64,000 bases of DNA, from the NCBI GenBank assembly GCA_021811085.1, contig JAJZPQ010000003.1, positions 43,750 through 107,749 on the forward strand. Direction: 5' to 3'. Both the position numbers and the translations under genes were made by a program. The notes under the pieces were generated by a model that ran no database searches, was not told the origin of the DNA, and worked only from the letters and a program-made list of their open reading frames with translations. This DNA comes from Pseudomonadota bacterium. Its GTDB lineage: Bacteria; Pseudomonadota; Gammaproteobacteria; Burkholderiales; SG8-39. This document shows positions 33,476-49,702 of the stretch, in pieces. The first letter of the stretch is position 1, and the number at the start of each line of letters is the position of its first letter.

Positions 33476-34531
33476 TTAGCGCAGCGCGGCGTTTATTTTT
33501 GCGAGCGCCGCCGCTCCGGGGCACAACTCCCGCGCGTTGAGCTGGTTGAACGGCGTGTCCACGGTATTGAGGTGGGCGTGCAGGTCTTCCGCGTCCGGAT
33601 GCACATAGAGCAGGCCGGTGACGAGTTCGCCTTTCGCCTGATGCTCAGCGATGTAGTTGAGCGCCTTGACCCGGTCGAGCGGATCGTACTCCGGGTGGAT
33701 CTTGCGCAGGCGCAGCACCGAGCCGTCGTGCTGCGCCACGTCGATCACGGCACCCGCCTGGTAATCGATGCTGATCGCGTCGCGCGTGGGCCAGAAGTCG
33801 AGCCGGTTCACGCTGTCATTGTGCTCGCGCACGTAGTCGTAGCTCTTGGTGCTGCCCTCGTGGTTGTTGAACGCGACGCAGGGGCTGACGATGTCGATGA
33901 ACGCCGCACCCTGGTGCGCAATCGCGCCTTTGATCAGCGGTACCAGCTGTTTCTTGTCGCCGGAGAAGCTGCGCGCGACATAGGTCGCGCCGAGCTGCAG
34001 CGCAAGCGACACCGTGTCCACCGGCGCATCGCGGTTGACCACGCCGCGCTTGGACTTGGAGCCCGCATCGGCGGTGGCGGAAAACTGCCCCTTGGTCAGG
34101 CCGTAGACGCCGTTGTTCTCGAGGATGTAGGTCAGGTTCACGCCGCGGCGCATGATATGCGCGAACTGGCCGATGCCGATCGAAGCCGAGTCGCCGTCGC
34201 CCGAGACGCCGAGGTAGATCAGCTCGCGGTTGGCGAGATTGGCGCCGGTCAGCACCGAGGGCATCCGGCCGTGCACGCTGTTGAAGCCGTGCGAATTGCC
34301 GAGAAAGTAGTCGGGGGTCTTCGAGCTGCAGCCTATGCCCGAGAGCTTGGCCACGCGATGCGGCTGTATGTCGAGCTCCCAGCAGGCCTGGATGATGGAC
34401 GCCGAAATCGAGTCGTGGCCGCAGCCGGCGCAGAGCGTGGAAATCTTGCCCTCGTAGTCGCGGCGCGTGTAGCCGACCTTGTTCTTCTGCAGCGTCGGGT
34501 GGTGGAGCTTGGGCTTGGTCAGATAGGTCAT
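33476..34531 (-). CDS. 2-oxoacid:acceptor oxidoreductase beta subunit
   Basis: 'LCAGCGH', 'SGIGCSS', TPP motif 'GDGD…NNGVYGLTKGQ'. Confidence 0.92.
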   Translation of the reverse strand: MTYLTKPKLHHPTLQKNKVGYTRRDYEGKISTLCAGCGHDSISASIIQACWELDIQPHRVAKLSGIGCSSKTPDYFLGNSHGFNSVHGRMPSVLTGANLANRELIYLGVSGDGDSASIGIGQFAHIMRRGVNLTYILENNGVYGLTKGQFSATADAGSKSKRGVVNRDAPVDTVSLALQLGATYVARSFSGDKKQLVPLIKGAIAHQGAAFIDIVSPCVAFNNHEGSTKSYDYVREHNDSVNRLDFWPTRDAISIDYQAGAVIDVAQHDGSVLRLRKIHPEYDPLDRVKALNYIAEHQAKGELVTGLLYVHPDAEDLHAHLNTVDTPFNQLNARELCPGAAALAKINAALR

Positions 34532-36375
34532 GCCGCTTTGTCCTTTTTCAGCGGGCGCACGTTCAGCGCCGCGGTCACCGCGGCGATTTCCTTGACGATG
34601 AAGCGCGCGGTGATCGGCGTGCCGTCGTAATGCAATACCGAGATCAGGCTGGCGGGGTTGATGTGGGCCTCGTTCACCAACAGGGTCTTCAACTGCGCGT
34701 CGCGGTTCTGCTCGATCACGAACACTTTCGAATGCGCCGCGACGAAATCGGCGATCTCGTCCTGGAACGGGAATGCGCGCACGCGCAGCGCGTTGACGTA
34801 GATGCCCTGCGCGGCGAGCGCGTCCAGCGCCTCGGCCATGGCCGGACTGGTGGAACCGAAATAGATCACGCCGAACCGCGCCGGATGCAGCGCGGCGCTG
34901 AGCAGCGGCTTGGGCACCAGCGTCTTCGCGGTCTCGAATTTTTTCAGCAGCCGCTGCATGTTGTCGACGTAGTCGGGACCGGCCTCGGAATAGCGCGCAT
35001 AGCGGTCCTTGGTCGTGCCGCGGGTGAAGTAGGCGCCGCGCGTCGGATGGGTGCCGGGGTAGGTGCGGTAGGGGATGCCGTCGCCGTCCAGGTCCAGATA
35101 GCGGCCGAAGTCCTTGCCCGCCTGCAGCTCTTCCGCACTCATGACCTTGCCGCGATCGTATTGCTTGGCGTCGTCCCATTCGAGCGGATCGCACAGGCGC
35201 GTATTCATGCCGATGTCGAGGTCGGTCATCACGAACACCGGCGTCTGCAGCCGGTCGGCCAGGTCCAGCGCCTGCGCGGTGAACTCGAAGCACTCTTTCG
35301 GGTCTTCGGGGAACAGCAGTACGTGCTTGGTATCGCCGTGCGAGGCGTAGGCGGTGGACAGGATGTCGGCTTGCTGCGTGCGCGTGGGCATGCCGGTGGA
35401 CGGGCCCCCGCGCTGCACGTCGATGACGGTTACCGGAATCTCGGCAAAATAGGCAAGGCCGATGAATTCCGTCATGAGCGAAATGCCGGGGCCCGAGGTC
35501 GCGGTGAAGGCGCGCGCGCCGTTCCAGCCGGCGCCGGTGACCATGCCGATCGAAGCGAGCTCGTCTTCGGCCTGCACGATCGCGAACTTGTTCTTGCCGG
35601 TCTCGGGATCGACGCGCAGGCGCTTGCAGTAGCGCTCGAACGCCTCGGCCACCGAAGACGAGGGCGTGATCGGGTACCAGGCGCACACCGTCGCGCCGCC
35701 GTACACCGCGCCCAGCGCCGCCGCGCTGTTGCCTTCCATGAATATCTTCTTGCCTACGGCATCTGCGCGCTGAACGCGCAGGCCGATCGGGCACTTGAGG
35801 TGGGCGAGCGCGTAGTCGCGCCCCATCTGCATCGCGTTCAGATTGGGCTTGAGCAGCTTTTCCTTGCCCTTGTACTGCTCGCCGATCAACTCGGCGATCG
35901 CGCCGGCGTCCATGTCGAGCAGCGCGGCGAGCGCGCCGACGTAGATGATGTTCTTGAACAGCTGGCGCTGGCGCGAGTCGTCGTAGGTCGCGTTGCAGAT
36001 GTCGGTGAGCGGCATGCCGATGACGTTGATGTCGTCGCGGAATTTCGATTGCGGCAGCGGCCGGGTGCTGTCGTAGAACAGGTAGCCGCCGGGCTCGATC
36101 TCGGCGATGTCCTGGTTCCAGGTCTGCGGATTCATCGCGACCATGAGGTCCACGCCGCCGCGGCGGCCGAGCCAGCCTTTCTCGGTCACGCGCACCTCGT
36201 ACCAGGTAGGCAGACCCTGGATATTGGAGGGGAAGATGTTGCGCGGGCTCACCGGCACGCCCATGCGCAGGATGGAGCGCGCGAACAGCTCGTTGGCCGA
36301 GGCCGAGCCCGAGCCGTTGACGTTGGCGAACTTGATGACGAAGTCGTTGATGCTCTCGATCCGTTTTGGCTTCAT
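34528..36375 (-). CDS. 2-oxoacid:acceptor oxidoreductase alpha subunit
   Basis: 'YPITPSS', 'QAEDE', 'TATSGPG', 'QRGGPSTG.PT'. Confidence 0.92.
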   Translation of the reverse strand: MKPKRIESINDFVIKFANVNGSGSASANELFARSILRMGVPVSPRNIFPSNIQGLPTWYEVRVTEKGWLGRRGGVDLMVAMNPQTWNQDIAEIEPGGYLFYDSTRPLPQSKFRDDINVIGMPLTDICNATYDDSRQRQLFKNIIYVGALAALLDMDAGAIAELIGEQYKGKEKLLKPNLNAMQMGRDYALAHLKCPIGLRVQRADAVGKKIFMEGNSAAALGAVYGGATVCAWYPITPSSSVAEAFERYCKRLRVDPETGKNKFAIVQAEDELASIGMVTGAGWNGARAFTATSGPGISLMTEFIGLAYFAEIPVTVIDVQRGGPSTGMPTRTQQADILSTAYASHGDTKHVLLFPEDPKECFEFTAQALDLADRLQTPVFVMTDLDIGMNTRLCDPLEWDDAKQYDRGKVMSAEELQAGKDFGRYLDLDGDGIPYRTYPGTHPTRGAYFTRGTTKDRYARYSEAGPDYVDNMQRLLKKFETAKTLVPKPLLSAALHPARFGVIYFGSTSPAMAEALDALAAQGIYVNALRVRAFPFQDEIADFVAAHSKVFVIEQNRDAQLKTLLVNEAHINPASLISVLHYDGTPITARFIVKEIAAVTAALNVRPLKKDKAA

Positions 36376-38234
36376 ACGGCTACAGGTTCCCTTTTTGGAG
36401 CGCGGCTGCGGCAGCCGGGGCCGGCATGGGTCATTTGCAGCAGGAATTTCTGCATGTCCCAGGCGCCCGTTGGGCAGCGCTCGGCGCACAGGCCGCAGTG
36501 CAGGCACACGTCCTCGTCCTTGGCCATGATGCGGCCGGTCTTGAGCGTGGATGAGACGTACAGGTCCTGCGTCAGGTTCTGCGCCGGCGCGTTGAGCCGC
36601 GTGCGCAGATCGGCTTCCTCGCCGTTGACGGTGAAGCTGATGCAGTCCATCGGGCAAATGTCGACGCAGGCGTCGCACTCGATGCACTTCGTCGTGGTGA
36701 ACACGGTCTGCACATCGCAGTTGAGGCAGCGCTCCGCTTCCTTGAACGCGGTGGCGCGGTCAAACCCGATCTCGACTTCGACCTTGATGTTTTTCAGCGT
36801 CTGGCTCGGATCGCGCCAGGGCACCTTGTAGCGCCGGTCGAGCGCGACTTCGTTGTCGTAGCTCCACTCGTGGATGCCCATTTTCTGCGACAGCAGGTGC
36901 ACCATCGGCGGCGGACGCTTCGCCACGTCCTCGCCCTGACAAAATTTGTCGATCGACACCGCGGCCTCGTGCCCGTGGGCGACGGCCCAGATGATGTTCT
37001 TCGGCCCGAACGCCGCGTCGCCGCCGAAGTACACGCGCGGCAGTGTGGATTGCAGCGTGATCTTGTCCACCACCGGCATGCCCCATTGGTCGAACGCGAT
37101 GCCGCAGTCCTTCTCGATCCAGGGAAACGCGTTTTCCTGGCCGACTGCGACCAGCACCTCGTCGCATTCGAAATGCTGGTCGGGCTCGCCCGTGGGCATC
37201 AACCGGCGCCGGCCTCGATTTGGCCCATCTGCATCGTACTGCGCCGCGACCTTTTCGAACGTGATGCCGGTGAGCTTGCCCTTGACGTGGGTGAATTCCT
37301 TGGGCACGAGATAGTTGAGGATCGGTATGCCCTCGTGCATCGCGTCCTCTTTCTCCCAGGGCGAGGCTTTCATTTCCTCGAAGCCGGAGCGCACGATCGC
37401 TTTGACGTCCTCGCCGCCCAGGCGCCGGCTGGTGCGGCAGCAGTCCATGGCGGTGTTGCCGCCGCCGAGCACGATCACGCGCTTGGATACCTTGGTGACG
37501 TGGCCGAAGGAAACGCTGGAGAGCCAGTCGATGCCGATATGGATGTGTTTCGCCGCTTCCTTGCGCCCGGGGATATCCAGGTCGCGCCCGCGCGGCGCGC
37601 CCGAACCGACGAATACCGCGTCGTAACCCTCGGCCAGCAGGGCCTTCATGCTGTCCACGCGCTTGCCGGCGCGGAATTCCACGCCCAGGCCGAGAATATA
37701 GCCGACCTCTTCGTCGATCACTTCCTCGGGCAGGCGGAAGCGCGGAATCTGGCTGCGGATCATGCCGCCCGCCTTCAGGTCGCCGTCGTACAGCACCACG
37801 TGATAGCCGTTCGGTGCCAGGTCGCGCGCGACGGTGAGCGAGGCCGGACCGGCGCCGACGCAGGCGACGCGCTTGCCGTTTTTCTTTTTCGGTACTGCGG
37901 GCAGACGCGCGCGGATGTCCGCCTTGTTGTCGGCCGCGACCCGCTTCAGACGGCAGATCGCGACGGGTTCTTTCGCCGCTGCGCCCGGCGCGCCACCGGC
38001 CGGGGCGTCCTCCACGCGGCTGCGGCGGCAGGCCGGCTCGCACGGACGGTCGCAGGTGCGCCCGAGGATGCCGGGGAACACGTTCGACTGCCAGTTGACC
38101 ATGTAGGCATCGTCGTAGCGGCCTGCGGCGATCAAGCGGATGTATTCGGGGACGGGCGTATGGGCGGGGCAGGCCCACTGGCAATCTACGACTTTATGGA
38201 AGTAATCTGGTGCGCCAATATCTGTCGGCTTCAA
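36372..38234 (-). CDS. GltD-like FAD/Fe-S oxidoreductase with C-terminal 2x[4Fe-4S] domain
   Basis: 'CQWACP', 'GRTCDRPCEPAC', 'GAGPAS', 'GGGNTAMD', 'CIECDACVDICP', 'CLHCGLCAERCP'. Confidence 0.88.
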   Translation of the reverse strand: MKPTDIGAPDYFHKVVDCQWACPAHTPVPEYIRLIAAGRYDDAYMVNWQSNVFPGILGRTCDRPCEPACRRSRVEDAPAGGAPGAAAKEPVAICRLKRVAADNKADIRARLPAVPKKKNGKRVACVGAGPASLTVARDLAPNGYHVVLYDGDLKAGGMIRSQIPRFRLPEEVIDEEVGYILGLGVEFRAGKRVDSMKALLAEGYDAVFVGSGAPRGRDLDIPGRKEAAKHIHIGIDWLSSVSFGHVTKVSKRVIVLGGGNTAMDCCRTSRRLGGEDVKAIVRSGFEEMKASPWEKEDAMHEGIPILNYLVPKEFTHVKGKLTGITFEKVAAQYDADGPNRGRRRLMPTGEPDQHFECDEVLVAVGQENAFPWIEKDCGIAFDQWGMPVVDKITLQSTLPRVYFGGDAAFGPKNIIWAVAHGHEAAVSIDKFCQGEDVAKRPPPMVHLLSQKMGIHEWSYDNEVALDRRYKVPWRDPSQTLKNIKVEVEIGFDRATAFKEAERCLNCDVQTVFTTTKCIECDACVDICPMDCISFTVNGEEADLRTRLNAPAQNLTQDLYVSSTLKTGRIMAKDEDVCLHCGLCAERCPTGAWDMQKFLLQMTHAGPGCRSRAPKREPVAV

Positions 38235-38396
38235 TCAGTCTGCTCCTTCCGGGCGCCTGCCGGGCCGGCCAGGATTGAAACGGCTTGGGGGCGCATAAGA
38301 GGCCGTGATTCTACTCTGGGCGAAGCGGGGTGAAAAGCACCTTTTTAATCCACCAAAAGCCGCATGGGTATAGGTCCAAATCGCGCCCGGCGCAGC

Positions 38397-40142
38397 CTAA
38401 GGCTGGGTACGAGGCGGCCGGCGCAGCAGACGCTGCAACGCTGCCAGCGGCCGCGCATTGAGCACATCCGCTTTTTCCAGCCAGCCGCGCCGCGCCTGCC
38501 CGATGCCATAGCGCAAATGCTCGAAGTCGAGTTCGCTGTGCGCATCGGAGCTGACGCAAACCAGCACGCCTTCGTCCTTGGCCATTCTGCAATGGGTGTC
38601 GAGCAGGTCGAGGCGCTCGGGATGGGCGTTCAGCTCGAGGAAGCGCCCGCAGGCGCGGGCCTTGCGGATAATGCGCAGCATGTCGACGTCGTAGGGTTCG
38701 CGCCGCTCGATCAAGCGCCCGGTCGGATGCGCCAGGATGTGCAAATGCGGTTGATCGAACGCTTTCAGGATGCGCTCGGTCTGGCGCTCGCGCGAGAGCT
38801 GGAAATCGCTGTGCACGGCACCCACCACCACGTCCAGGCGCGCAAGCACGGAATCGGGCAGGTCGAGCGTGCCGTCGGCGAGGATATCCACTTCTACGCC
38901 TTTGAGCACCCTGATGCCGGCGAGTTCGGCGTTGAGCCGGTCGATTTCGTCGATCTGGCGCGCGAGCGCTTGCGGGTCCAGTCCGTGCGCGAGCCGCAGC
39001 CGGCGCGAGTGCTCGGTGATCGCGAGATAGGACAGGCCGCGCGCGGCGGCAGCCTGCGCCATCTCCCTGATGCCGGCATGGCCATCGCTTGCGCGGGTAT
39101 GCACATGCAAATCCCCGCGCAAATCGCCCAACTCCACCAGACGCGGCAGTGTGCCTGCACGCGCGGCCTCGATTTCGCCCTGGTCTTCGCGCAATTCGGG
39201 CGGAATATAAGGCAGCCCGACCGCGGCGTAGACGGATTCCTCGGTGTCCCCGGCGACGCGCGCGGCACCGCGGTACACGCCGTATTCATTGATCTTCAGC
39301 CCGCGCGCCTGACCCAGGCGGCGCACGGCGATGTTGTGGGCTTTCGAGCCGGTGAAATAATGCAGCGCCGCGCCGTAACACGCCTCGGCCACGACGCGCA
39401 GGTCCACCTGTATACCCGCGTGCAATACCACGCTTGCGCGCGTGTCGCCACGAGAGAGAACCTGTCGGACCTCGGGGTAGGCGGTAAAGCGCTGCATTAC
39501 CTGGTCTGCGGCGGCGGCGGTGATCAGCATGTCGAGATCGCCCACGGTCTCGCGCATGCGACGGAAGCTGCCCGCGAGTTCGACCCGCCCGACGCCGGGA
39601 ATCCGGCGCAGATAGTCGGCATAGGCCTCGGCATACTGCGCGGCGACGGCGAGCTTGTAGCGCCCCGGACGCTTCAGGTGCGCTTCCACACCCCGCAGTA
39701 TTTTGAGCTCCGACTTTTCGCCGAAGCCGGCAAGCGCACGCAGCCGGCCGTCGCGCGCCGCGCGGTAGAGCTGCTCCGGCGTCTGCACGTCGAGTTCCTG
39801 GTACAGGCGCTGCACCCGCTTCGGCCCCAAACCGGGAACATGCAGCAGATCGGCGATGCCGGCGGGCAGTTCGCGCCTGAGTTTTTCCAGCAGCGCGCAG
39901 GTCCCGCTCGCGGCGACCTCGTGGATCTTGGCGCCGAGGTCCGCGCCTATGCCGGGGAGCTTGGGCAGTTCGCCGCCGCCGGCAAGGCGCGCGGCGAGGT
40001 CGAGCTGCAGACCCTCGACTATGCGCGCCGCGTTGCGGTAGGCGCGAATGCGAAACGGATTGGCCTGCTCGATCTCGAGCAGGTCCGCGATTTCGCCGAA
40101 CACCCGCGCGATGTCGGCGTTGTGTACGGCGTGCTCTGGCAT
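38397..40142 (-). CDS. polX: DNA polymerase X with PHP domain
   Basis: 'NPFRIRAY', 'AGSFRR.RETVGDLD', 'QVDLR', 'YFTGSK', PHP 'HVHT…SDG', 'HPTGR', 'SDAH'. Confidence 0.93.
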   Translation of the reverse strand: MPEHAVHNADIARVFGEIADLLEIEQANPFRIRAYRNAARIVEGLQLDLAARLAGGGELPKLPGIGADLGAKIHEVAASGTCALLEKLRRELPAGIADLLHVPGLGPKRVQRLYQELDVQTPEQLYRAARDGRLRALAGFGEKSELKILRGVEAHLKRPGRYKLAVAAQYAEAYADYLRRIPGVGRVELAGSFRRMRETVGDLDMLITAAAADQVMQRFTAYPEVRQVLSRGDTRASVVLHAGIQVDLRVVAEACYGAALHYFTGSKAHNIAVRRLGQARGLKINEYGVYRGAARVAGDTEESVYAAVGLPYIPPELREDQGEIEAARAGTLPRLVELGDLRGDLHVHTRASDGHAGIREMAQAAAARGLSYLAITEHSRRLRLAHGLDPQALARQIDEIDRLNAELAGIRVLKGVEVDILADGTLDLPDSVLARLDVVVGAVHSDFQLSRERQTERILKAFDQPHLHILAHPTGRLIERREPYDVDMLRIIRKARACGRFLELNAHPERLDLLDTHCRMAKDEGVLVCVSSDAHSELDFEHLRYGIGQARRGWLEKADVLNARPLAALQRLLRRPPRTQP

Positions 40143-40175
40143 GCTGACCTCAATGCGAATGCCCGGACCGGGACT

Positions 40176-41798
40176 TCACATCTCCATGTCCGCCGCCGGC
40201 GCAGATGCTGCTGCGGCCTCCTCGCGCAATTCCGCCACCATGCAGTCGGTGGTCAGGATGAGTCCGGCAATGGAAACGGCGTTTTGCAGCGCCGAGCGCG
40301 TCACCTTGCATGGATCGAGCACGCCCATCGCAACCATGCCGCCGAACACGCCGGTGGCGGCGTTGTAACCGAAGTCGCCCGCACCTTCCAGTACCCGGTT
40401 GAGCACGACCGAGGGCTCCTCGCCGGCATTGGCGACGATCTGCCGCAGCGGCTCTTCCAGCGCGCGCAATACGATCCGGATTCCGGCGTCCTGGTCCGGG
40501 TTGTCGCCGGCCAGCGCGCTCAGCGCCTGGCGCGCGCGCAGCAGCGCGACGCCGCCGCCCGGGAGCACGCCCTCTTCGACCGCCGCGCGGGTCGCATGCA
40601 GCGCGTCCTCGACGCGCGATTTGCGCTCCTTCATTTCAGTTTCGGTCGCGGCACCGACCTTGACCAGGGCGACGCCGCCCGCGAGCTTGGCCGCGCGCTC
40701 CTGCAGCTTGTCGCGGTCGTAGTCGCTCTTCGCCTCCTTGATCTCGCGCCGGATCGCGGCGATGCGCGCCTCGATAGCGGCGGGTTCGCCCATGCCGCCG
40801 ATGAGGGTGGTGTTGTCCTTGTCCACCTCGATGCGCCGCGCCCGGCCCAGATGCTCGAGGCCGGCATGCTCGAGCGTGAGTCCGAGCTCCTCCGCCACCA
40901 CCTGCGCGCCGGTGAGCACCGCGATGTCCTCGAGCATCGCCTTGCGCCGGTCGCCGAAGCCGGGCGCCTTGACCGCACAGGCCTTGAGCACGCCGCGCAG
41001 GCTGTTGACCACCAGCATCGCGAGCGACTCGCCCTCTACATCTTCGGCGACCAACAGCAACGGCTTCGCCGCCTGCGCGATCTTCTCCAGCAGCGGCAGC
41101 AACTCGCGTATCGCGGAGACCTTCTTGTCGCACAGCAGCACATAGGCGTCCTCGAGCACGCAACGCTGCTTGTCGGCGACGTTAATGAAATAGGGCGAGA
41201 GGAAACCGCGGTCGAACTGCATGCCCTCGACCAGTTCCAATTCGCTCGCGAGGCCGCGCCCGTCCTCGACCGTGATCACGCCGTCCCTGCCCACTTTCTC
41301 CATTGCGTCGGCGATGATGTCGCCGATGCTGCTGTCGGAATTGGCGGATATCGTCGCGACCTGCGTGATCTCCTTGCGCCCGCTGCAGGGCTGGGCCAGG
41401 CGTTTCAATTCCGCCACCACCGCTGCGCTCGCGCGGTCGATGCCGCGCTTGAGGTCCATCGGGTTCATGCCCGCAGCCACGTATTTCATGCCCTCGAGCG
41501 CGATCGCCTGTGCCAGAACCATGGCGGTGGTAGTGCCGTCGCCGGCCACTTCCGAGGTCTTCGCGGCGACCTCGCGCACCATTTGCGCGCCCATGTTTTC
41601 AAAGTGATCCTTGAGTTCGATCTCCTTGGCCACAATGACGCCCGAGTTGATGATGGTAGGCGCGCCGTACGCGCGCTCCAGCATTACCGTGCGCGCCTTC
41701 GGTCCAAGCGTGACTTTGACCGCGTTGGCGAGCACCGCCACGCCGCGCATGATCCGCGCGTGTGCGTCATCATGAAAAATCACTTGTTTGGCGGTCAT
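40176..41798 (-). CDS. groL: Chaperonin GroEL paralog (no adjacent groES)
   Basis: 'TLGPK', 'GDGTTTA', 'EGMQFDRG', '[10 protein letters not shown]', '[11 protein letters not shown]'. Confidence 0.92.
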
Positions 41799-41835
41799 AT
41801 GCGTGACTCCTTGGGATCCGGCACCGGCGTCGCGG

Positions 41836-42201
41836 CTAGCTGCGTGAACCGGGTGTATCGTGGCCATGGCGGCCATGTTCGAGATTGCGCCGGCACAGGT
41901 GATCCTCCAGTTGGAGGCGGGCGGCGGTGAACGCGTCGCGCAGCGCCATGTAGACGTCCTCGCCGTGCTCGCGGTTGACCACCACCTCGGTTCCCGGCAA
42001 CGTGATGATCAGCCGCACCGCGAACCTCGCGGCTTGACTTTGGTCCGGCTCCAGCGCCTCGACCACCACCTGGCTGCTGCGGATCCCGGCGTAAGCCTTG
42101 TCGAGCCTGCGCGCCTCGCTATCGATGTAGCGTTCGAGCGCGTCGGATGCGTGGATGCCGCGCAACGCGATCTCTACGGGAGTATGTCCAGCCCCGGCCA
42201 T
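41836..42201 (-). CDS. HPF/RaiA-family ribosome-associated protein
   Basis: '[12 protein letters not shown]', '[16 protein letters not shown]' resemble sigma54-modulation/HPF fold. Confidence 0.75.
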
Positions 42202-42217
42202 GGCAGCGCGCAAAGGC

Positions 42218-42436
42218 TCAGTTGTAGTCGTCGAAGTATGGAGGCCGACTCCTGCCGCCCTCATCCTGCACGATGCGCTGGCAATCGATCTCGTCGTCGC
42301 GCTCCTCGGGGACCTGCGCCGTCTGCTCCCAGGCGGCCGGGGCGGTCGTTGCGCTGCGTCCCCGCCCGGCCGGTGCTTTGGCCGCGTGCTTGCGCGCCGC
42401 GCTAAGGACTTTTCCCGACTTCGATTTGGCGCCCAT
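42218..42436 (-). CDS. Small hypothetical protein (72 aa, basic N-terminus, acidic C-terminus)
   Basis: AGGAG RBS before MGAKSK…; first ORF after an FNR-type promoter. Confidence 0.55.
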   Translation of the reverse strand: MGAKSKSGKVLSAARKHAAKAPAGRGRSATTAPAAWEQTAQVPEERDDEIDCQRIVQDEGGRSRPPYFDDYN

Positions 42437-42464
42437 CGCTTGCTCCTGCTGGGGATTGGAATTC

Positions 42465-42505
42465 ATCGTAACGGCAATCGCCGCCACACTGTTGATATTG
42501 GTCAA
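42465..42505 (-). promoter_or_regulatory. FNR-dependent class II promoter
   Basis: TTGAT-attg-GTCAA at 42492-42505; minus-strand -10 TACGAT at 42465-42470; box centred about -41. Confidence 0.75.
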
Positions 42506-42566
42506 AAAGCACGTTGCTTCGCGCAGGCGCGCTGCTTCTCACGCACTGCGGGAGACCGAAGCATGT

Positions 42567-42580
42567 TTGATCTGCGTCAC
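42567..42580. promoter_or_regulatory. FNR-like box
   Basis: TTGAT-ctgc-GTCAC upstream of the small membrane-protein gene. Confidence 0.55.
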
Positions 42581-42667
42581 ACCGCGGCGGCCCGATTTGC
42601 GTTCTCCTGATCACTGCGTCATGCGCGGACCAATTGCTGCCCGCGCCAACCCGGGGGGAACCTGTCG

Positions 42668-42838
42668 ATGATCAGAAACAAAGCGCTGCGTCGCAGCCTT
42701 GGCGCGCTGCTCGTATTGCTGGGTGCCCTGCTGATCTGGTTGCCTTACGATCTGGCGAGCGGCGTCGTGCTGGTGCTTGCCGGCGCCGCGCTGGAACTGG
42801 TCGGCGTGGCGCTGGAGAAAAACGACAAGCAGCCTTAG
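42668..42838 (+). CDS. Small two-TM membrane protein (56 aa; absent from ORF track)
   Basis: MIRNKALRRSLGALLVLLGALLIWLPYDLASGVVLVLAGAALELVGVALEKNDKQP*; G-rich RBS, GC3-biased codons. Confidence 0.65.
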   Translation: MIRNKALRRSLGALLVLLGALLIWLPYDLASGVVLVLAGAALELVGVALEKNDKQP

Positions 42839-42885
42839 AGGATGCAGCAACAGCCGGCGCGGCCGCCGGCGCCATTGCGCCGCGG

Positions 42886-43335
42886 CTAATGCCGCCGCTG
42901 CGCTTCGCGCCGCTGCTCGAGCCGTATTGCCTGCGCCAGCGCAGACAGCTCCTCCGCCAGGACCGGAATCAGGTCGTCCATGGCCACGATACCCAGCAGA
43001 TGCTCGTTTGCGTCCACCACGACCAGGCGGCGCACGCCGCCGCTGCGCATGCGCGCGATGATCTCGAACAGTCCTGCCGTCTCCTTGAGTGTAGCCGGGG
43101 GCTCCGACATGATATCGCCGACCGTGAGCTTGCGGTAATCCACATCCGCCGCGACCACCTCGACCACCAGGTCGCGGTCGGTGACGATACCGATCGCGCG
43201 GCGCGCTGCGGCACCGCCTTCGGTCACCACCAGCGCACCGATATGATTATCGCGCATGAGCTTTGCCGCCTCCTGCACGGGCGTGCCGCGTTCGGCGATG
43301 ACGACGATCCGGCTGCAAATTTCTCCGACATTCAT
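42886..43335 (-). CDS. CBS-pair protein
   Basis: 'EAAKLMRDNHIGALVV', 'GIVTDRDL', 'VRRLVVVD'. Confidence 0.9.
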   Translation of the reverse strand: MNVGEICSRIVVIAERGTPVQEAAKLMRDNHIGALVVTEGGAAARRAIGIVTDRDLVVEVVAADVDYRKLTVGDIMSEPPATLKETAGLFEIIARMRSGGVRRLVVVDANEHLLGIVAMDDLIPVLAEELSALAQAIRLEQRREAQRRH

Positions 43336-43398
43336 GGCTGCCCCCTGTACGCAAAGTCGACGCGCCCGCCGCCAGGTGCAGGTGCGAGCGATGACACA

Positions 43399-43440
43399 AG
43401 TATGGGTCGCCCTTGCGCACGCAGGCTTGATTTTGGTCAC
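43399..43440 (-). promoter_or_regulatory. FNR-dependent class II promoter of CBS gene
   Basis: TTGAT-tttg-GTCAC at 43427-43440; minus-strand -10 CATACT at 43399-43404. Confidence 0.65.
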
Positions 43441-43597
43441 AGCGCATGGACAGATACTGCCGCGCCGCCCGCTGCCAGCGGCCTGCGCATAATGCGAGTC
43501 GTCCCAGGGCAATCTCTTTTATACTGCTACCTGAGGGTCTGTAGGCTTGCGGCGGCGGAAGGCTGGGCGCCGACGGATCCTGACAAGGGGATTCAGT

Positions 43598-46054
43598 TTG
43601 CGGCAACCATCGGCCCAAGCCGATAAACCTATCGCTGCTGCGCGGCCACGAGCGACGCCCGCGCGGCGGCCGCGCTATCTGGTGCTCAGCCTGGGCGCCC
43701 TGGCGGTGCTGTCGATCCTCGCCAGCACCGTGTTCAACTTGTGGCGCATGCATGACGAGGTGACCCAGCTCGCCGAAGAGCATCTGCTCGGCTTGGCCCA
43801 TATACTCGCCGAGCAGACCGTGCGTTCGACCCACGCTGTCGATGCCGTACTTCGCGCTGCCGCGGAAGACGCGCAAAGAGCGGGAGCCGGCGACGCGCAG
43901 GTCCCGTCAAGGGAACTGCATCAGCAATTGCGCGAAATCATCGCGCACACGCCCTACGTCAGCGCACTCATGCTGTCGGACGCGAACGGCAATCTGCTGG
44001 CCCACACGGCGGAATTTCCGCCGCCGTCGATTCACCTCGGCAACAGCGAATTCTTTCGCGCACACCGCGAGCGCCGTGCCGCACCGGCGCGCGTGCCGCA
44101 GCCAATAGTCAGCAGGGCCGAAGGCGAGCGCGGCATCAGCGTGAGCCGCAGGCTGAATGCGCCGGATGGCCGCTTTGTCGGCGTCATCTCCGCCATCGTC
44201 GGTCCGGATTATTTCCTCGGTCCGGTGGGCTTGCAGGAACTCGGCCCGGATGGGATGGTACGGCTGCTGCGCCGCGACGGCGCCTTGCTCGCCGGTTATC
44301 CGATGGCGAATGCAGCCGCCACCCGCAACTATCGCGACTCAGCGCTGTTCACCCAGGGCGTAGACGCCGGACGCGAACTGATTCGCCACCCCAGCGCCAG
44401 CGGCGGCCAGGAACGCCTCAGCGCAATTCGCGTAATCGACGACTACCCGCTCGTCGTGACCGTGACCTCGTCCACCGATTTTGTCCTGCGCACCTGGCGC
44501 CGCAGCGCGGCGCTGTTCGGGGCTGTCGCCGCGCTCACCGCCACCCTGCTCGCCCTGATCACCCTGTCGCTTGCGCGCCAGTTGCGCGTCGACGAGGAGT
44601 TGAAAGCCGAGGTCAGCGAATCGGAGGAGCGCCTGCAGGCCATTATTCAGTCGGCCATGGACGCGATCATCATCGTCGATACGCAGCAGCGCATCGTGCT
44701 GTTCAACGCCGCCGCGGAGCAGACCTTCCGCTGCCCGAGCGCGCAGGCAATCGGCGCCGATATCAGCCGCTTCGTTCGCGGGCGCCTGCTCGAACTGCAG
44801 CCGCTGTACGCCGCCGAGGGCGGCGCCGCCGACGCCCCGATGCGCAGAATGGGACAGCATCTCGCGCTCAGCGGCATATCCGCCGCCGGCAGCGAATTTC
44901 CCATCGATGCCTCGGTTTCCCAGGTTCAGCTGCAAGACACGCTGCTGTACATCGTGATTCTGCGCGATGTCACCGAGCGCAAGCAGGTGGAGGCGGCGTT
45001 GCGCGCGAGCGAGCAACGCTACCGCACGCTGTTCAACCAGGCTACCGACGGCATCTTGCTGCTCGATGCGGACGGCAACGTCATCGACGTCAACGGCGCT
45101 TTCGCGCGTATGCACGGCTATGCCGTCGACGAGCTTCTGCAGATGAATCTGCGCGAACTGGATACGCCGGAGACTTTGGAGCTCGCGCCGGAGCGCCTCA
45201 GGCGCATACTCTCCGGGGAAACCATCGGCTTCGAGGTGGAGCACTTTCGCAAGGACGGCAGCATTCTGCCGCTCGACGTCGCCACTTCGGCGATCGATAT
45301 CGACGGGGGCATCTTCGCGCTGGCATTTCATCGCGACATCACCGAGCGCAGGCGCGCCGAGCAGGACCTCAAGCGCTCGCAGCAGGAACTGCGCGGCCTG
45401 TCCAAGGCCGCGAACGAGGCGCTGGAGGCGGAGCGCCGCCGCACCGCGCGCGAGCTGCACGACGAACTCGGCCAATCGCTCACCGCGCTGAAAATGGACC
45501 TCGAGTCGCTGCGCTCCGCCCTGCCCCCCGACCAGGTGGAGCTGGGCGAACGCGCGCTCGCCATGCACGGCCTGCTCGACAGCACGATCGCAGCCACACG
45601 CCGCATCGCCGCCGATTTGCGCCCGCTGATGCTCGACGACCTGGGACTGGCCGCAGCGCTTGATTGGCTGACGCACAATTTTTCCAAGCACACCGGCATC
45701 GCCACCGACCTGGTGATCGACGACGCCGTGGCGCAGGTGCCCGAGCCGATCGCGTCTGCGCTATACCGCATCACCCAGGAATCGCTCACCAATGTGGCGA
45801 AATATGCGCATGCGAGCACCGCCGAAATCCGTCTCGAGCGCGACGGCGACTGGGTGGAACTCCTCGTGCGCGACGATGGCCGCGGCATCGAGGCCGCGGA
45901 CCAGGGCAAGCAGGGCGCATTCGGCCTGCTCGGTATCCGCGAACGGGTGACGCTGCTCGGCGGGGAAGTCGCGATCACGGGCAAACCCGGCCAGGGCAGC
46001 CAGGTGCGCGCGCGCATTCCGCTCGCCGCGGCAGACGCGGGGGCGATCGCATGA
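43598..46054 (+). CDS. Sensor histidine kinase: Cache-like, 2 PAS, HisKA_3
   Basis: 2 TM, PAS 'FNAAAE', 'RDVTERK', 'ARELHDELGQ.LT', 'QESLTNV', 'DDGRG'; start uncertain. Confidence 0.9.
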   Translation: MRQPSAQADKPIAAARPRATPARRPRYLVLSLGALAVLSILASTVFNLWRMHDEVTQLAEEHLLGLAHILAEQTVRSTHAVDAVLRAAAEDAQRAGAGDAQVPSRELHQQLREIIAHTPYVSALMLSDANGNLLAHTAEFPPPSIHLGNSEFFRAHRERRAAPARVPQPIVSRAEGERGISVSRRLNAPDGRFVGVISAIVGPDYFLGPVGLQELGPDGMVRLLRRDGALLAGYPMANAAATRNYRDSALFTQGVDAGRELIRHPSASGGQERLSAIRVIDDYPLVVTVTSSTDFVLRTWRRSAALFGAVAALTATLLALITLSLARQLRVDEELKAEVSESEERLQAIIQSAMDAIIIVDTQQRIVLFNAAAEQTFRCPSAQAIGADISRFVRGRLLELQPLYAAEGGAADAPMRRMGQHLALSGISAAGSEFPIDASVSQVQLQDTLLYIVILRDVTERKQVEAALRASEQRYRTLFNQATDGILLLDADGNVIDVNGAFARMHGYAVDELLQMNLRELDTPETLELAPERLRRILSGETIGFEVEHFRKDGSILPLDVATSAIDIDGGIFALAFHRDITERRRAEQDLKRSQQELRGLSKAANEALEAERRRTARELHDELGQSLTALKMDLESLRSALPPDQVELGERALAMHGLLDSTIAATRRIAADLRPLMLDDLGLAAALDWLTHNFSKHTGIATDLVIDDAVAQVPEPIASALYRITQESLTNVAKYAHASTAEIRLERDGDWVELLVRDDGRGIEAADQGKQGAFGLLGIRERVTLLGGEVAITGKPGQGSQVRARIPLAAADAGAIA

Positions 46055-46695
46055 CGCGCATCCTGATTGCCGACGACCACGCGATCGTGCGCGACGGCCT
46101 GCGCCGCATACTGCAGAGCGCGCCCGGAATCGAAGTGGCGGGCGAGGCGGTGAGCGGCGACGAAGTCATGGCGCGGGTGCGCGCGGGCGGCTTCGATCTG
46201 CTGCTGCTCGACATGTCGATGCCTGGGAAAAGCGGCATCGAGCTGATCAAATGGGCCAAAACCACGCGCCCGGAGCTCGCCGTGCTGGTGCTGTCCATGC
46301 ACCAGGAGGAGCAGTACGCGGTGCGCGCGATTCGCGCCGGCGCATCCGGCTATGTGACCAAGGAAAGCGCCTCCGCGCTGCTGGTCGCCGCGATCCGCAA
46401 GGTCGCCGAAGGCGGGCTGTACATCAGCCCCGGCGTGGCGGAGCAGCTCGCGCTCACGCTGCGGCCGCAGGCCGATAATCTGCCGCATCAGACGCTGTCC
46501 GATCGCGAATACGAGGTATTCGGCCTGTTGGTGACGGGCGCGACCGTCTCCGATATCGCCGCTCGTCTGCATTTGAGCGGAAAGACCGTGAGCACGCACA
46601 AGGCGCGCATCTTCGAAAAGATGGGCATGGACAGCGTCGCCGACCTGGTGCGCTACGCCATGGCACACAAGCTAGGCGACGCGCGCGACGCCTAA
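46051..46695 (+). CDS. NarL/FixJ-family response regulator
   Basis: 'IADDH', 'LLDMSMPG', 'LSDREYEV', 'KTVSTHK'. Confidence 0.92.
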   Translation: MTRILIADDHAIVRDGLRRILQSAPGIEVAGEAVSGDEVMARVRAGGFDLLLLDMSMPGKSGIELIKWAKTTRPELAVLVLSMHQEEQYAVRAIRAGASGYVTKESASALLVAAIRKVAEGGLYISPGVAEQLALTLRPQADNLPHQTLSDREYEVFGLLVTGATVSDIAARLHLSGKTVSTHKARIFEKMGMDSVADLVRYAMAHKLGDARDA

Positions 46696-46704
46696 TCCCC
46701 GCCG

Positions 46705-46726
46705 CGTGTAGGCATCGCCCTACACG
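46705..46726. promoter_or_regulatory. Inverted repeat, candidate response-regulator site
   Basis: CGTGTAGG-N6-CCTACACG perfect arms, no U-tract. Confidence 0.5.
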
Positions 46727-46828
46727 GCTTCCGAAAAGTCCGATGCCCCGTTTCAGCCCGCGCCTATGGTGGGCGCGGCAGTTGATGTTCCATACTCGGG
46801 CCAACTACAGGCAGATCCGGCGGCGATT

Positions 46829-47239
46829 ATGGAATGGGCTCAACAGGACGCGACGCTCCAGGTATACCTGGTCGAGGATTCGCCGGCGATCCGCGCGCGC
46901 CTCGCTGCCACCATCAGGGGGATCGAAGGCGCCGAATTGGTGGGAGAAGCGGGCACGGTAGGCGCCGCGATCGAGGGCATCCGCTCGACCCATCCCGGCG
47001 CGGTGATTCTGGATCTGCAGCTGGAGGACGGCAGCGGCCTGGAAGTGCTCAAAGCGGTGTACCCCTCCGCGCCCGCGCTGCACGTCGCGGTGCTCACCAA
47101 TTACGCCACCGACCAGCACCGGCGCGCCTGCATGGACGCCGGCGCCGAATTTTTCCTGGATAAGTCCTCCGATTTCCCGCGCATCCGGGAGATTGTCCAG
47201 CGCTGGACAGCACGCCCCGCACCCGCCGTTTTCCATTAA
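46829..47239 (+). CDS. Stand-alone receiver-domain protein
   Basis: 'LVEDS', 'ILDLQL', 'VLTN', 'FLDK'. Confidence 0.85.
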   Translation: MEWAQQDATLQVYLVEDSPAIRARLAATIRGIEGAELVGEAGTVGAAIEGIRSTHPGAVILDLQLEDGSGLEVLKAVYPSAPALHVAVLTNYATDQHRRACMDAGAEFFLDKSSDFPRIREIVQRWTARPAPAVFH

Positions 47240-47265
47240 ACGGATGCAACCCGCAGATCAAACCC

Positions 47266-48180
47266 ATGGAGCCAAAAATGACCGCCGCAATGTCGCACTT
47301 TGATGCACTCGATTTTGTTGGCAGCATCGACGCGGGGGCGCCGGACCTGCAGGAGCATGAGGGCGCCAACGTTTCCGTACGCGATCTGACGCGGCTGCTG
47401 CATATCGAGTACCCCGACGACGCCTGGCTCGCGCGCACCGCATTCGCCCTGCGCCGCGTGCGCGAGGGCGAGGCGCTGGTGCATGCGGGTGACAAATTCC
47501 ATTCCCTCTACGTCGTCCGCTCCGGTTGCTTCAAGACCGTCTACACCGATTTCTCCGGCAGCGAACAGGTGCTGGGATTCCCGATGTGCGGCGATCTGAT
47601 GGGAGCCGATGGCATCGACTGCGGGCACTACAGCTCGACCGCCGTTTCGCTCGATACCAGCGAAGTGGTGATCGTACCGCTCACCAGTCTGGCGCGCCTG
47701 GTGTACGAATGCCCCAGCCTGGAAGCCATGCTGTATCGCGTGCTGAGCCGCGAGTTGGTGCGCGTGCAGAACATGGCCTGGACCCTGGGCACGCTCGGTG
47801 CGGAAGGCCGGGTGGCGGCGTTCCTGCTCAACCTTTCGGCACGGCTCGGCGCATTGGGCTATTCGCGCAGCTCGTTCAATTTGCGCATGACGCGCCAGGA
47901 AATCGGCAGCTACCTCGGCCTCAAGCTTGAAACGGTGAGCCGCGCGCTATCGGCATTGAATACCGCCGGCATCATCCAGGTGCACCAGAGAAGCATAGAC
48001 ATCGTGGACGCCGACGCATTGCGCGGCGTGATCGACCCGGCCGCGGGCGTCCCGGCCGGCGTCGCGCCGCAATTCGATTCACCCCCTGCGCACAGCGACG
48101 TCAGCGCCGGCAAGCACGCCAAAAAAGCCCGCGCACAGTTTCCGCCCGGGCTTGCCTGGCGGCAGCTCGCGGCGGCTTAG
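47266..48180 (+). CDS. Crp/Fnr-family regulator (FixK-like, no N-terminal Cys cluster)
   Basis: cNMP-like domain, 'MTRQEIGSYLGLKLETVSR' FNR recognition helix. Confidence 0.9.
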   Translation: MEPKMTAAMSHFDALDFVGSIDAGAPDLQEHEGANVSVRDLTRLLHIEYPDDAWLARTAFALRRVREGEALVHAGDKFHSLYVVRSGCFKTVYTDFSGSEQVLGFPMCGDLMGADGIDCGHYSSTAVSLDTSEVVIVPLTSLARLVYECPSLEAMLYRVLSRELVRVQNMAWTLGTLGAEGRVAAFLLNLSARLGALGYSRSSFNLRMTRQEIGSYLGLKLETVSRALSALNTAGIIQVHQRSIDIVDADALRGVIDPAAGVPAGVAPQFDSPPAHSDVSAGKHAKKARAQFPPGLAWRQLAAA

Positions 48181-48267
48181 CCCACGCATCGGCATCGGAC
48201 GCAATGCCGCCGCGCGGCCGCAGCAGGTATCATAGCGGCGCCTTCACCAACAAAAAGGGGTTCCGAC

Positions 48268-48711
48268 ATGTTCAAGCACATCCTCGTTCCGACCGACGGG
48301 TCGACTTTGTCGCTGCGCGCCGCGAAGAATGCCGTGCGCTTCGCCAAAGTCCACGGCGCGCGCATGACCGCCTTTTATGTGGCGCCGCAATATCATCCGA
48401 ATATTGCAGGCGATTACCTGCCGGCAAATTTCGTCCCGCTCGCCGTGTTCCAGAAGCAGATCAAGAAGACTGCGGAAAAATACCTGGATCAGATCAAGAA
48501 GCTCGCCAGCGTGGGCAGCGTTGCCTGCTCCGGCTTCTATGTCAGCGACGATTCGCCCTATCAAGCGATCATCAAGGCCGCCAAGGAGCGCAAGTGCGAT
48601 CTCATTTTCATGGCCTCGCACGGCCGCAGCGGGATCGCCGGGCTGTTGATCGGCAGCGAAACAAGCAAGGTGCTCACGCACTGCAAGCTGCCGGTGCTGG
48701 TCTATCGCTGA
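48268..48711 (+). CDS. Universal stress protein
   Basis: 'ILVPTDGS', 'DLIFMASHGRSG', 'IGSET.KVL…PVLV'. Confidence 0.93.
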   Translation: MFKHILVPTDGSTLSLRAAKNAVRFAKVHGARMTAFYVAPQYHPNIAGDYLPANFVPLAVFQKQIKKTAEKYLDQIKKLASVGSVACSGFYVSDDSPYQAIIKAAKERKCDLIFMASHGRSGIAGLLIGSETSKVLTHCKLPVLVYR

Positions 48712-48739
48712 GCCGGGAGCGCCGCAGCTGCGACGCAGG

Positions 48740-49047
48740 CGCGGGAAGAAAAGAGATGCTTGGCTGGCAGCGAGGACCGACCAAATGCGAGGATCACGAG
48801 CGTTTACCCTCAAGCCGACAATAAATATTTTTCGTGCACAGGATACTAAATCCGCAAAGTGCCGCTGTTGCTGTTCCACGAATTCAGGGCGAAACAGAAC
48901 CTCTTTCGCTTCAGAGTAGAGAGCCATGGCAGGCGCGAGACCGGTGTCGCCCGTGAGGAAACGATTCATGTCCTCCGGATGACTTGCTACACGAACGGGT
49001 CCGCTGTGTGCGCTGGCACCCGCGCCAAATAGCAGTAGGTTCGACAT
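48740..49047 (-). pseudogene. Internally deleted SIR2-like gene remnant
   Basis: 'LLLFGAGAS' start joined within about 25 codons to C-terminal-type 'P…K…IFIVG…D..IW'; no own stop before running into usp; lower GC by eye. Confidence 0.55.
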
Positions 49048-49070
49048 GACGCCACCACTAGCTTAGCGAC

Positions 49071-49367
49071 TCACGCAGCTTTCTTCACGAGAAGCCGCAC
49101 GCTCAATCCAGCGCGCGTAGCGATGTTGACCAGCGCGTCCAAGCTGAACAGGCCGATCTTGCCCTTGAGCAGGGCGTTGAGGCGCGGCGCCGTCAGACCC
49201 AGAACCTCTGCCATCTTTGCCTGAGGCACGCCACTTTTCTGACAGCAGTCCTCGATGCGCATCATCAGTTCGGCGCGCAGCTTCAGGTTCTCGGCTTCGT
49301 CCTTGTCGAAACCGATGTCGGCAAAGACGTTGCCCGAGCCGCGGGTAATTTTCAATTTCTTGCTCAT
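49071..49367 (-). CDS. HigA-like XRE antitoxin
   Basis: 'SGNVFADIGF', HTH 'Q…AEVLG.T.PR', 'FSLDAL'. Confidence 0.85.
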   Translation of the reverse strand: MSKKLKITRGSGNVFADIGFDKDEAENLKLRAELMMRIEDCCQKSGVPQAKMAEVLGLTAPRLNALLKGKIGLFSLDALVNIATRAGLSVRLLVKKAA

Positions 49368-49702
49368 CGCTGTCTTCTCTCCTGCACCAATTCCCTGAAG
49401 CGCCGCCGGGCAAGCTCGAGGTCCTGCTTCGGGGTCTTCTGCGCCTTTTTCTGGAAGGCGTGTAGCACGTACACCGCCTCCGCGAACTTGGCCACGTAGA
49501 TGACACGGAACGCGCCGCCGTCCTCGCGCACGCGAATCTCGTTGGCCCCGAGCCCGACCGAAGGCATGGGCTTCCAGTCGGCTGGTTCCTTGCCGGCTTG
49601 GACGCGCTCAAGCTGATACCCTGCCTCGCGCCGGAGGTCATCGGGAAACGCCCGAATTTGCTCCTGGCTGTCTCCGACCCATCGAACTTGCTTGAGCGTC
49701 AT
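49364..49702 (-). CDS. HigB/RelE (Gp49-like) toxin
   Basis: 'AGYQL..VQ.G..P.DWKPM', 'EIR', 'RVIY', 'VLHAFQKK'. Confidence 0.88.
   Translation of the reverse strand: MTLKQVRWVGDSQEQIRAFPDDLRREAGYQLERVQAGKEPADWKPMPSVGLGANEIRVREDGGAFRVIYVAKFAEAVYVLHAFQKKAQKTPKQDLELARRRFRELVQERRQR

Follow-up and report, generated by a model that had tools for sequence, protein, structure and literature searches.

The window analysed here, a 64,000-nucleotide stretch of the Pseudomonadota assembly GCA_021811085.1 (contig JAJZPQ010000003.1, positions 43,750 to 107,749), carries on its minus strand a predicted four-gene operon encoding a small protein, an HPF-family protein, a stand-alone GroEL and PolX. With a probability of roughly 60%, we read it as an operon of interchangeable low-oxygen genes that is likely switched on via an upstream FNR/FixK-type box by an FNR/FixK-like protein, and that includes an accessory GroEL in which Ser replaces Asp52 and which is predicted to hydrolyse ATP slowly. 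An earlier note on this DNA had described four co-oriented genes with 16–37 bp gaps, and this layout was confirmed: the open reading frames (ORFs) of a 72-aa protein (42218..42436), a 121-aa HPF-family (PF02482) protein (41836..42201), a 540-aa GroEL paralog (40176..41798) and a 581-aa canonical PolX-PHP (38397..40142) are separated by gaps of 16, 37 and 33 nt, with gene families assigned by Pfam/NCBIfam, and all four are under purifying selection. No terminator was found after polX; the downstream oxidoreductase genes were left out of the operon because they have a promoter-like site of their own ahead of them at 38336–38308.

The FNR/FixK-type box TTGATATTGGTCAA (42492..42505, no strand assigned) departs from TTGAT-N4-ATCAA by one mismatch and is the only match with at most one mismatch in the window. 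A predicted −10 hexamer, TACGAT (42465..42470, minus strand), lies 21 nt past it and sets the predicted +1 near 42457–42458, hence the box centre at about −40.5/−41.5; AGGAG at 42447–42443 and the ATG of the 72-aa gene at 42436 follow. The earlier proposal of an FNR box about 41 bp upstream of a start predicted from this hexamer was borne out, and the spacing proved to be the genome-wide norm. Across the whole source genome, TTGAY/RTCAA half-sites occurred 68 times with a 4-nt spacer versus 0–14 times with each other spacer from 0 to 10, and a TAnnnT hexamer stood 21 or 22 nt from the boxes in 32 cases versus at most three at any other distance; because both counts peak at the values seen here, the spacing of the box is above chance. 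In 20 fetched regions of the source genome, 11 boxes had the same geometry and a downstream ORF, and the genes behind such boxes include frdA (fumarate reductase), two MtrC-type decaheme cytochromes, pntA, a universal stress protein (USP) gene and a DksA-like gene.

The box was found at −62/−63 from the small gene with a TAnnnT hexamer behind it in 12 of 14 same-genus genomes, a 13th had a two-mismatch copy at that place and one had a different upstream region. A site near −41.5 from a sigma-70 −10, as in class II FNR/FixK activation, is present in the predicted promoter, so that the class II geometry named before is retained within the genus and equals that of the fumarate reductase and MtrC promoters. 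A sigma-70 scan called no promoter at the predicted operon start because the −35 element is replaced by the box. These observations support a predicted FNR/FixK-type class II promoter ahead of the operon. A second, weaker box, TTGATCTGCGTCAC (42567..42580, no strand assigned, two mismatches), has an unclear role, and a similar sequence is present in several relatives. Rfam gave no match within 36000–49500, and GC content is flat across the region (64–69%), which therefore bears no sign of recent transfer; among the RNA runs, 5–9% of words were found in two and none in three, giving no evidence either way on expression.

The GroEL had been called atypical, rightly, but its most unusual feature, Asp52Ser, had not been named. 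It matches TIGR02348 with 798 bits (cut-off 582), is 72% identical to the housekeeping GroEL of the same genome and, in E. coli GroEL numbering, which was used for all residue comparisons, carries the changes G35A, N37T, T50I, K51N, D52S, S135A, G148A, D334G and V412L. These nine sites, together with P218 and the Gly-Met tail, separate 174 proteins of what we call the NSG clade from 80 canonical ones: INSG replaces TKDG in the clade while Asp52 occurs in all 80 canonical proteins sampled, and the Gly-Met tail is found in 5 of 174 versus 72 of 80. Changes particular to the clade are concentrated near the nucleotide pocket, in the stem-loop and hinge. The remaining functional residues are largely those of E. 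coli GroEL and group I chaperonins, with D87, G88–T91, N153, D398 and D495 as well as Y203, F204, L237, L259, V263, V264, N265, E386 and R452 kept in 150–174 of the 174 proteins. The window copy has the GDGTTT motif (D87), N153, D398 and D495, retains the apical and inter-ring residues Y203, F204, L234, L237, L259, V263, V264, N265, R452 and E461, and differs at Y199F and T261M; unlike the E. coli protein, it has no adjacent groES, no Gly-Met tail and an FNR-type rather than a heat-shock promoter. The ratio of nonsynonymous to synonymous substitution rates (dN/dS) of NSG GroEL within the genus, 0.09–0.14, is at the level of the neighbouring oxidoreductase, and therefore this is not a decaying copy. 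In GroEL, ATP is attacked by a water molecule that D52 and D398 keep in place, according to the consulted parts of PMC10723157, PMC8440773 and PMC12557358. With Ser in place of Asp52, slow ATP hydrolysis is therefore predicted. The D52A variant of E. coli GroEL reportedly has about one fifth of its activity left.

Proteins of the clade were collected with the pattern GPKARTV...NSGV, which a GRN/ANSG variant escapes, so residues 35–37 and 51–52 are collection criteria, and the other changes and the tree constitute the independent evidence. The pattern was matched in 65 of 201 family genomes and in 22 of 401 order genomes, the latter in seven families, and among 401 class-level genomes in the source genome only (3 of the other 400 being from the same order); plasmid searches gave no close NSG match (best 74%) and hence no cultured carrier with a name. 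Of 80 groELs returned by a contig scan with the first 100 GroEL residues, 78 were housekeeping copies, and these served as the control set. In quick IQ-TREE and FastTree trees, both made without the frameshifted L148, the NSG proteins formed one side of a branch with a Shimodaira-Hasegawa-like approximate likelihood ratio support of 100, which was still 99 after residues 1–59, the tail and five diagnostic columns were removed. With alpha- and gammaproteobacterial rows as the outgroup, the NSG clade would be a betaproteobacterial duplication. Records of NSG homologues are labelled uncultured Burkholderiales, Casimicrobiaceae, Ramlibacter sp., Opitutaceae and Verrucomicrobiota; two NSG-clade GroELs with the labels Opitutaceae/Verrucomicrobiota (P0043 and P0069) are nested among betaproteobacterial ones, pointing to transfer or a binning error.

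Of the 65 other family matches, 60 were fetched and 59 of these loci had upstream sequence. In 36 of the 59, a box lay no more than 110 nt from the start of NSG-groEL; in 18 others, a correctly −10-spaced box up to 2.5 kb away faced the gene (54 of 59 in total). Neither test was passed by any of 93 canonical groES starts; a stricter box rule yielded 30 of 59 versus 0 of 93. Of the 36 promoters with a box, 29 have TAnnnT at the distance seen in the window, 21 nt, and 9 of 14 out-of-family loci (L172–182 and L191–193) had a box within 110 nt under a rule admitting at most one mismatch or the TTGAC/GTCAA form. No groES was found near any of the 60 NSG loci, whereas one lay beside each of the 78 canonical groELs. 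The description of the window gene as a groEL without groES likewise stands, as the source genome (98% complete) has one groES, located beside the canonical groEL about 60 kb away. Neighbours of NSG-groELs encode USP, CBS, Hsp20, phasin, PhaC, beta-CASP RNase, BON, cation ATPase, Lon-like protease, RtcB/archease and DksA-like proteins. A 93-aa protein with no Pfam match (L168:10992–11273, plus strand) also recurs in 9 NSG-groEL loci; the same protein is encoded in 6 polX loci (L310 and L313–L317), where its gene follows a box and immediately precedes polX. No description of a natural Asp52Ser GroEL clade was found in the literature searched, a coverage that excluded most subscription papers and regulon supplements. 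The widespread FNR-box-linked GroEL clade lacking Asp52 is the new, testable part of this analysis.

The main alternative for this protein is an ordinary working chaperonin that adds folding capacity or serves anaerobic clients under low oxygen, with the Asn51-Ser52 site compensated and turnover near normal. The remaining nucleotide, apical and ring residues are all retained, dN/dS equals that of the neighbouring housekeeping oxidoreductase, and B. diazoefficiens uses low-oxygen groELs; stand-alone groELs are moreover common, amounting in the survey figures of PMC5406781 to 834 of 5,658 groELs, with an extra GroES-less groEL in 770 of 4,861 genomes, and M. xanthus GroEL2 is described there as working with a shared GroES. 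We nevertheless consider near-normal turnover rather unlikely, given that Asp52, invariant in the canonical sample, is absent from the whole clade, that the changes cluster at the nucleotide pocket, and that the Gly-Met tail, linked to general folding in the consulted part of PMC11978752, is lost in 169 of 174 proteins.

Upstream of the operon, a Cache/PAS HisKA_3 kinase (43547–46054), a LuxR-type response regulator (46051–46695) and a stand-alone receiver (46766–47239), all on the plus strand, form a block (43547..47239) that is syntenic in the genus, and are followed on the same strand by a CRP/FNR protein (47266..48180) with an ETVSR recognition helix (LKLETVSR) and by a USP (48268..48711). 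The CRP/FNR protein had been put forward for a binding assay; both the N-terminal cysteine cluster and the EVC cysteine are absent from it and present in proteins on contigs C38 and C129 of the same genome. Lacking the iron-sulfur cysteines, it is therefore FixK-like and would not itself sense oxygen, FixK being, in the terms of PMC2908626, an FNR-type protein without them. In addition, C129:13590–14063 and C28:38686–39006 encode overlapping protein sequence and seem to be two parts of a second cysteine-bearing FNR that the assembly has broken up.

As FNR, FixK and DNR recognise virtually identical sites (PMC2908626, as far as consulted), 14 CRP/FNR helix-turn-helix matches exceed the cut-off in the source genome and the adjacent regulator is devoid of iron-sulfur cysteines, the box might instead report nitric oxide via a DNR-type protein, or redox state or stationary phase via the adjacent two-component system. 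Such a signal is judged unlikely, since the same box and spacing precede the fumarate reductase and MtrC genes, cysteine-bearing FNRs are present in the genome, and Burkholderia and Bradyrhizobium induce homologous gene sets under hypoxia, as reported in the consulted parts of PMC3721108 and PMC9104804, respectively.

A low-oxygen, stand-alone groEL is already known, which overturns the solo-chaperonin half of the earlier statement that no system with PolX and a solo chaperonin under FNR control was known: B. diazoefficiens groEL5 (blr4635) has a FixK2 box at −150 and is 29-fold down in the fixK2 mutant (PMC9104804, Table 2). Like the window gene, which stands alone behind its FNR/FixK box among stress genes, groEL5 is a transcription unit of its own with a FixK2 box; its neighbours are hspC2, a USP gene and a resistance-nodulation-division (RND) adaptor gene, and the FixK2 regulon also holds CBS and phaC2 genes, whereas a term search of the 37 genes in that Table 2 found neither PolX nor HPF. 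The groEL5 protein is alphaproteobacterial and is compared here with NSG GroEL on control and gene context. In 151 Bradyrhizobium-genus genomes, no groEL matched the NSG pattern in frame (five matches were off-frame, like the control); the groELs of six such genomes comprised groES-linked copies, fragments and two divergent copies, all with Asp52, and the box of PMC9104804 was matched in 6 of 81 genomes, in none near groEL. The two divergent copies (L270 and L271) are stand-alone GroELs of about 42% identity, and presumably resemble monooxygenase-associated chaperonins.

The B. cenocepacia lxa locus offers the second likeness, sharing with the window a TGA-N6-TCA motif and, in BCAM0287–0292, an Anr-like regulator, a response regulator, a sensor kinase and USPs that are mirrored by 43547–48711 (PMC3721108). 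The gene types near NSG-groELs are those of lxa (PMC3721108) and of the FixK2 regulon (PMC9104804), but lxa is a 50-gene block with no groEL, HPF or PolX in Table 4 or the main text of PMC3721108. By the shared motif, the common pool of USP, CBS, Hsp20 and polyhydroxyalkanoate (PHA) genes, and the CRP-FNR and two-component module, the window and the NSG loci fit the lxa type. Further context is given in the consulted parts of PMC3759415, PMC6515984, PMC12973609 and PMC1892554.

The gene order of the operon is variable within the genus. The small gene is always followed by hpf, and the gene after that varies: of 14 assessable same-genus genomes (G385 and 13 that have the small gene, a further contig ending too early), groEL comes next in 7, followed in turn by polX in 4 of these 7, by a C-terminal polX remnant in one and by no polX in two. 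Among 54 family loci from outside the genus, an HPF-family gene was nearby in 7 and polX in 6 (one frameshifted), and in none (0/54) did NSG-groEL, HPF and polX occur together; in another family, polX-groEL-HPF was found in one locus (L221), polX-groEL in one and groEL-HPF in two. Because the same genes recur in differing orders, they behave as members of one regulon. From gene order, the ribosome-storage and DNA-repair genes are thus best read as exchangeable parts of a low-oxygen survival regulon of a known kind, not as a fixed system, and this four-gene operon as a lineage-specific local assortment arising by ordinary gene shuffling. The mycobacterial DosR regulon offers a parallel. The earlier idea that the four genes are one dedicated hibernation system, selected as a unit to guard ribosomes, proteins and DNA, could call on the tight gene spacing, the same order in 4 other same-genus genomes, the L221 locus and the presence of polX in 37 of 65 family genomes with NSG-groEL versus 25 of 136 without, but it is very unlikely and did not survive the neighbourhood survey, as groEL and polX come and go in the proportions given, all three genes never coincide in the 54 loci, the small gene was seen only in the genus-level group and each gene has other partners elsewhere.

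That small gene had been taken for an orphan; it rather represents a genus-level family with 128 homologues (dN/dS 0.10–0.46), present in 14 of 22 other genus genomes (two more weak matches were set aside) and found nowhere outside the genus-level group. Its 72-aa product has a basic N-terminal half and a conserved acidic/aromatic C-terminal half, is probably disordered, had no Pfam, NCBIfam or Atlas match, and its predicted fold was uninformative (mean predicted local distance difference test score 59).

The next protein, previously labelled HPF/RaiA, holds this label in part: it scored 43.1 bits against PF02482 (gathering score 23.7) but 25.4 bits against the HPF/YfiA model TIGR00741, below the cut-off of 40.9. 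Its best solved relative is HPFcold, a 183-aa HPF-cold-shock fusion (E 7e-13 versus 1e-4 or weaker for other HPFs), to which it is alike in the PF02482 domain. It ends after the HPF domain and lacks the C-terminal cold-shock domain, which in HPFcold shields the anti-Shine-Dalgarno; HPFcold is bound in the 30S tRNA cleft, as given in the consulted part of bioRxiv 10.1101/2025.11.08.686982 (PDB 9t0z/9tze). The canonical HPF of the source genome is encoded elsewhere, and a full HPF-cold-shock fusion is found at C135:18300–18968 of this genome (G000), behind an FNR-type box of its own. This suggests that HPFcold-family genes may be low-oxygen regulon members in Betaproteobacteria. HPFcold-type genes behind boxes were also seen in L166, L167, L223 and L224.

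The PolX matches NF006375 with 552 bits (cut-off 426), and its dN/dS is 0.14–0.17. Aligned to T. thermophilus PolX (3AU2), it has GDLD and VDLR and the PHP metal ligands HxH, DG, TEH, E, H, H and DAH, so that the catalytic Asp residues are intact, as had been stated; the triad and PHP ligands are those of canonical PolX-PHP (PMC9226535), while the neighbours published for betaproteobacterial PolX, i.e. an efflux protein, a multicopper oxidase and DksA (supplement Table S3 of PMC9226535), differ from the setting in the window. Family-wide, polX was matched in 62 of 201 genomes. A box was present in 24 of 40 fetched polX loci, at a density of 1.70 per 10 kb versus 0.36 in the source genome, and the usual polX neighbours were CBS, USP, Hsp20, PhaC and RtcB genes; within 1.5 kb upstream of polX, a box occurred in 19 of 37 loci (background 154 of 2908 tiles). 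These counts suggest that PolX resides in low-oxygen islands and, for a minority of polX loci, is under direct FNR-type control. No link of PolX to a low-oxygen regulon is named in the consulted parts of PMC9226535 and PMC12926913, and no description of PolX under FNR control was found within the literature coverage stated above. In L308, L309, L311, L312 and L317, FNR-type boxes lie 21–33 nt before the aligned polX start; these are too close for class II activation, and are possibly repression sites or sites of another promoter. A second island at C3:39646–43600 of the source genome encodes a protein resembling only the N-terminal helix-hairpin-helix part of PolX, along with hydrolase, phosphoribosyl pyrophosphate synthetase-like, phosphoribosyltransferase-like and CBS genes, their functions being read by eye.

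Put together, the favoured reading, an operon of interchangeable low-oxygen genes with a slow GroEL, would work as follows. When oxygen falls, an iron-sulfur FNR encoded elsewhere, or the FixK-like neighbour acting downstream of the two-component pair, would activate transcription near 42457 from a promoter with the geometry of the fumarate reductase and MtrC promoters, and the transcript, to judge by the short gaps, would span the small gene, hpf, groEL and polX. The GroEL, with its ATP-binding, GroES- and substrate-binding and ring-contact residues retained and Asp52 and the Gly-Met tail gone, would still bind ATP and clients, borrow the housekeeping GroES and cycle slowly; alone or in mixed rings with the housekeeping GroEL, it would hold proteins at low ATP cost until oxygen returns. 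HPF, perhaps with little effect in this strain, would block ribosomes that stand idle, and PolX would fill gaps during DNA repair when cells do not grow or meet oxygen again. The genes would have a common regulator, not a common pathway, their products acting separately. Going further, we tentatively entertain as possible that an undescribed chaperonin clade, present in no fewer than seven families of Betaproteobacteria, has exchanged heat-shock for low-oxygen control, and that the loss of half its catalytic dyad has made it an ATP-sparing holdase or a brake subunit slowing housekeeping rings in anoxia, that is, a chaperonin 'hibernation factor' beside ribosome hibernation factors and PolX. 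The favoured reading and its rivals are not all mutually exclusive.

Several points weigh against the favoured reading. The relatives are not independent samples, and S52/N51 were used to collect the clade, which makes their invariance circular; D398 is kept, so hydrolysis may be only modestly lower. Sixteen of the 40 polX loci have no box, and a correctly −10-spaced box within 1.5 kb upstream of polX was found in 5 of 37 (background 22 of 2908 tiles). Selection on HPF is relaxed (dN/dS 0.26–0.51), and the HPF start ATG of all 14 relatives, with its purine-rich leader, is missing in the window copy. The 16-nt gap ahead of hpf was measured as claimed but rests on the nearest in-frame ATG, which has no Shine-Dalgarno-like leader, and the window HPF may be poorly made.

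These results bear on why bacteria keep extra GroES-less groELs, which the 770 of 4,861 genomes cited above carry (PMC5406781). In the NSG clade, a regulatory signature (54/59 versus 0/93) comes together with one defined substitution in the active site, known until now chiefly from engineered mutants; whether chaperonin ATP consumption is adjusted by cells for dormancy can thus be tested directly. Membership of PolX and HPFcold-family proteins in low-oxygen regulons of Betaproteobacteria is likewise suggested by the survey and would place these poorly understood proteins in a physiological context.

Further genes flank the operon. Divergent from it lies the gene, overlooked before, of a 56-aa hydrophobic, probably two-helix membrane protein (42668..42838, plus strand) with a weak Pfam match only and 79–95% identical copies in 10 same-genus genomes; it points away from the small gene in the window and in 7 relatives and shares its direction in 3, and this mixed orientation therefore indicates that the segment was inverted within the genus. 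Next to it, a CBS-pair protein gene (42886..43335, minus strand) has a two-mismatch box at 43427–43440. Past the USP gene, a HigB/HigA-like pair (Gp49-like and HTH_37) occupies 49071–49702 on the minus strand. At the other end, genes for a flavin/4Fe-4S oxidoreductase and then 2-oxoacid:ferredoxin oxidoreductase alpha and beta (33476–38234, minus strand) are constant downstream neighbours across the genus.

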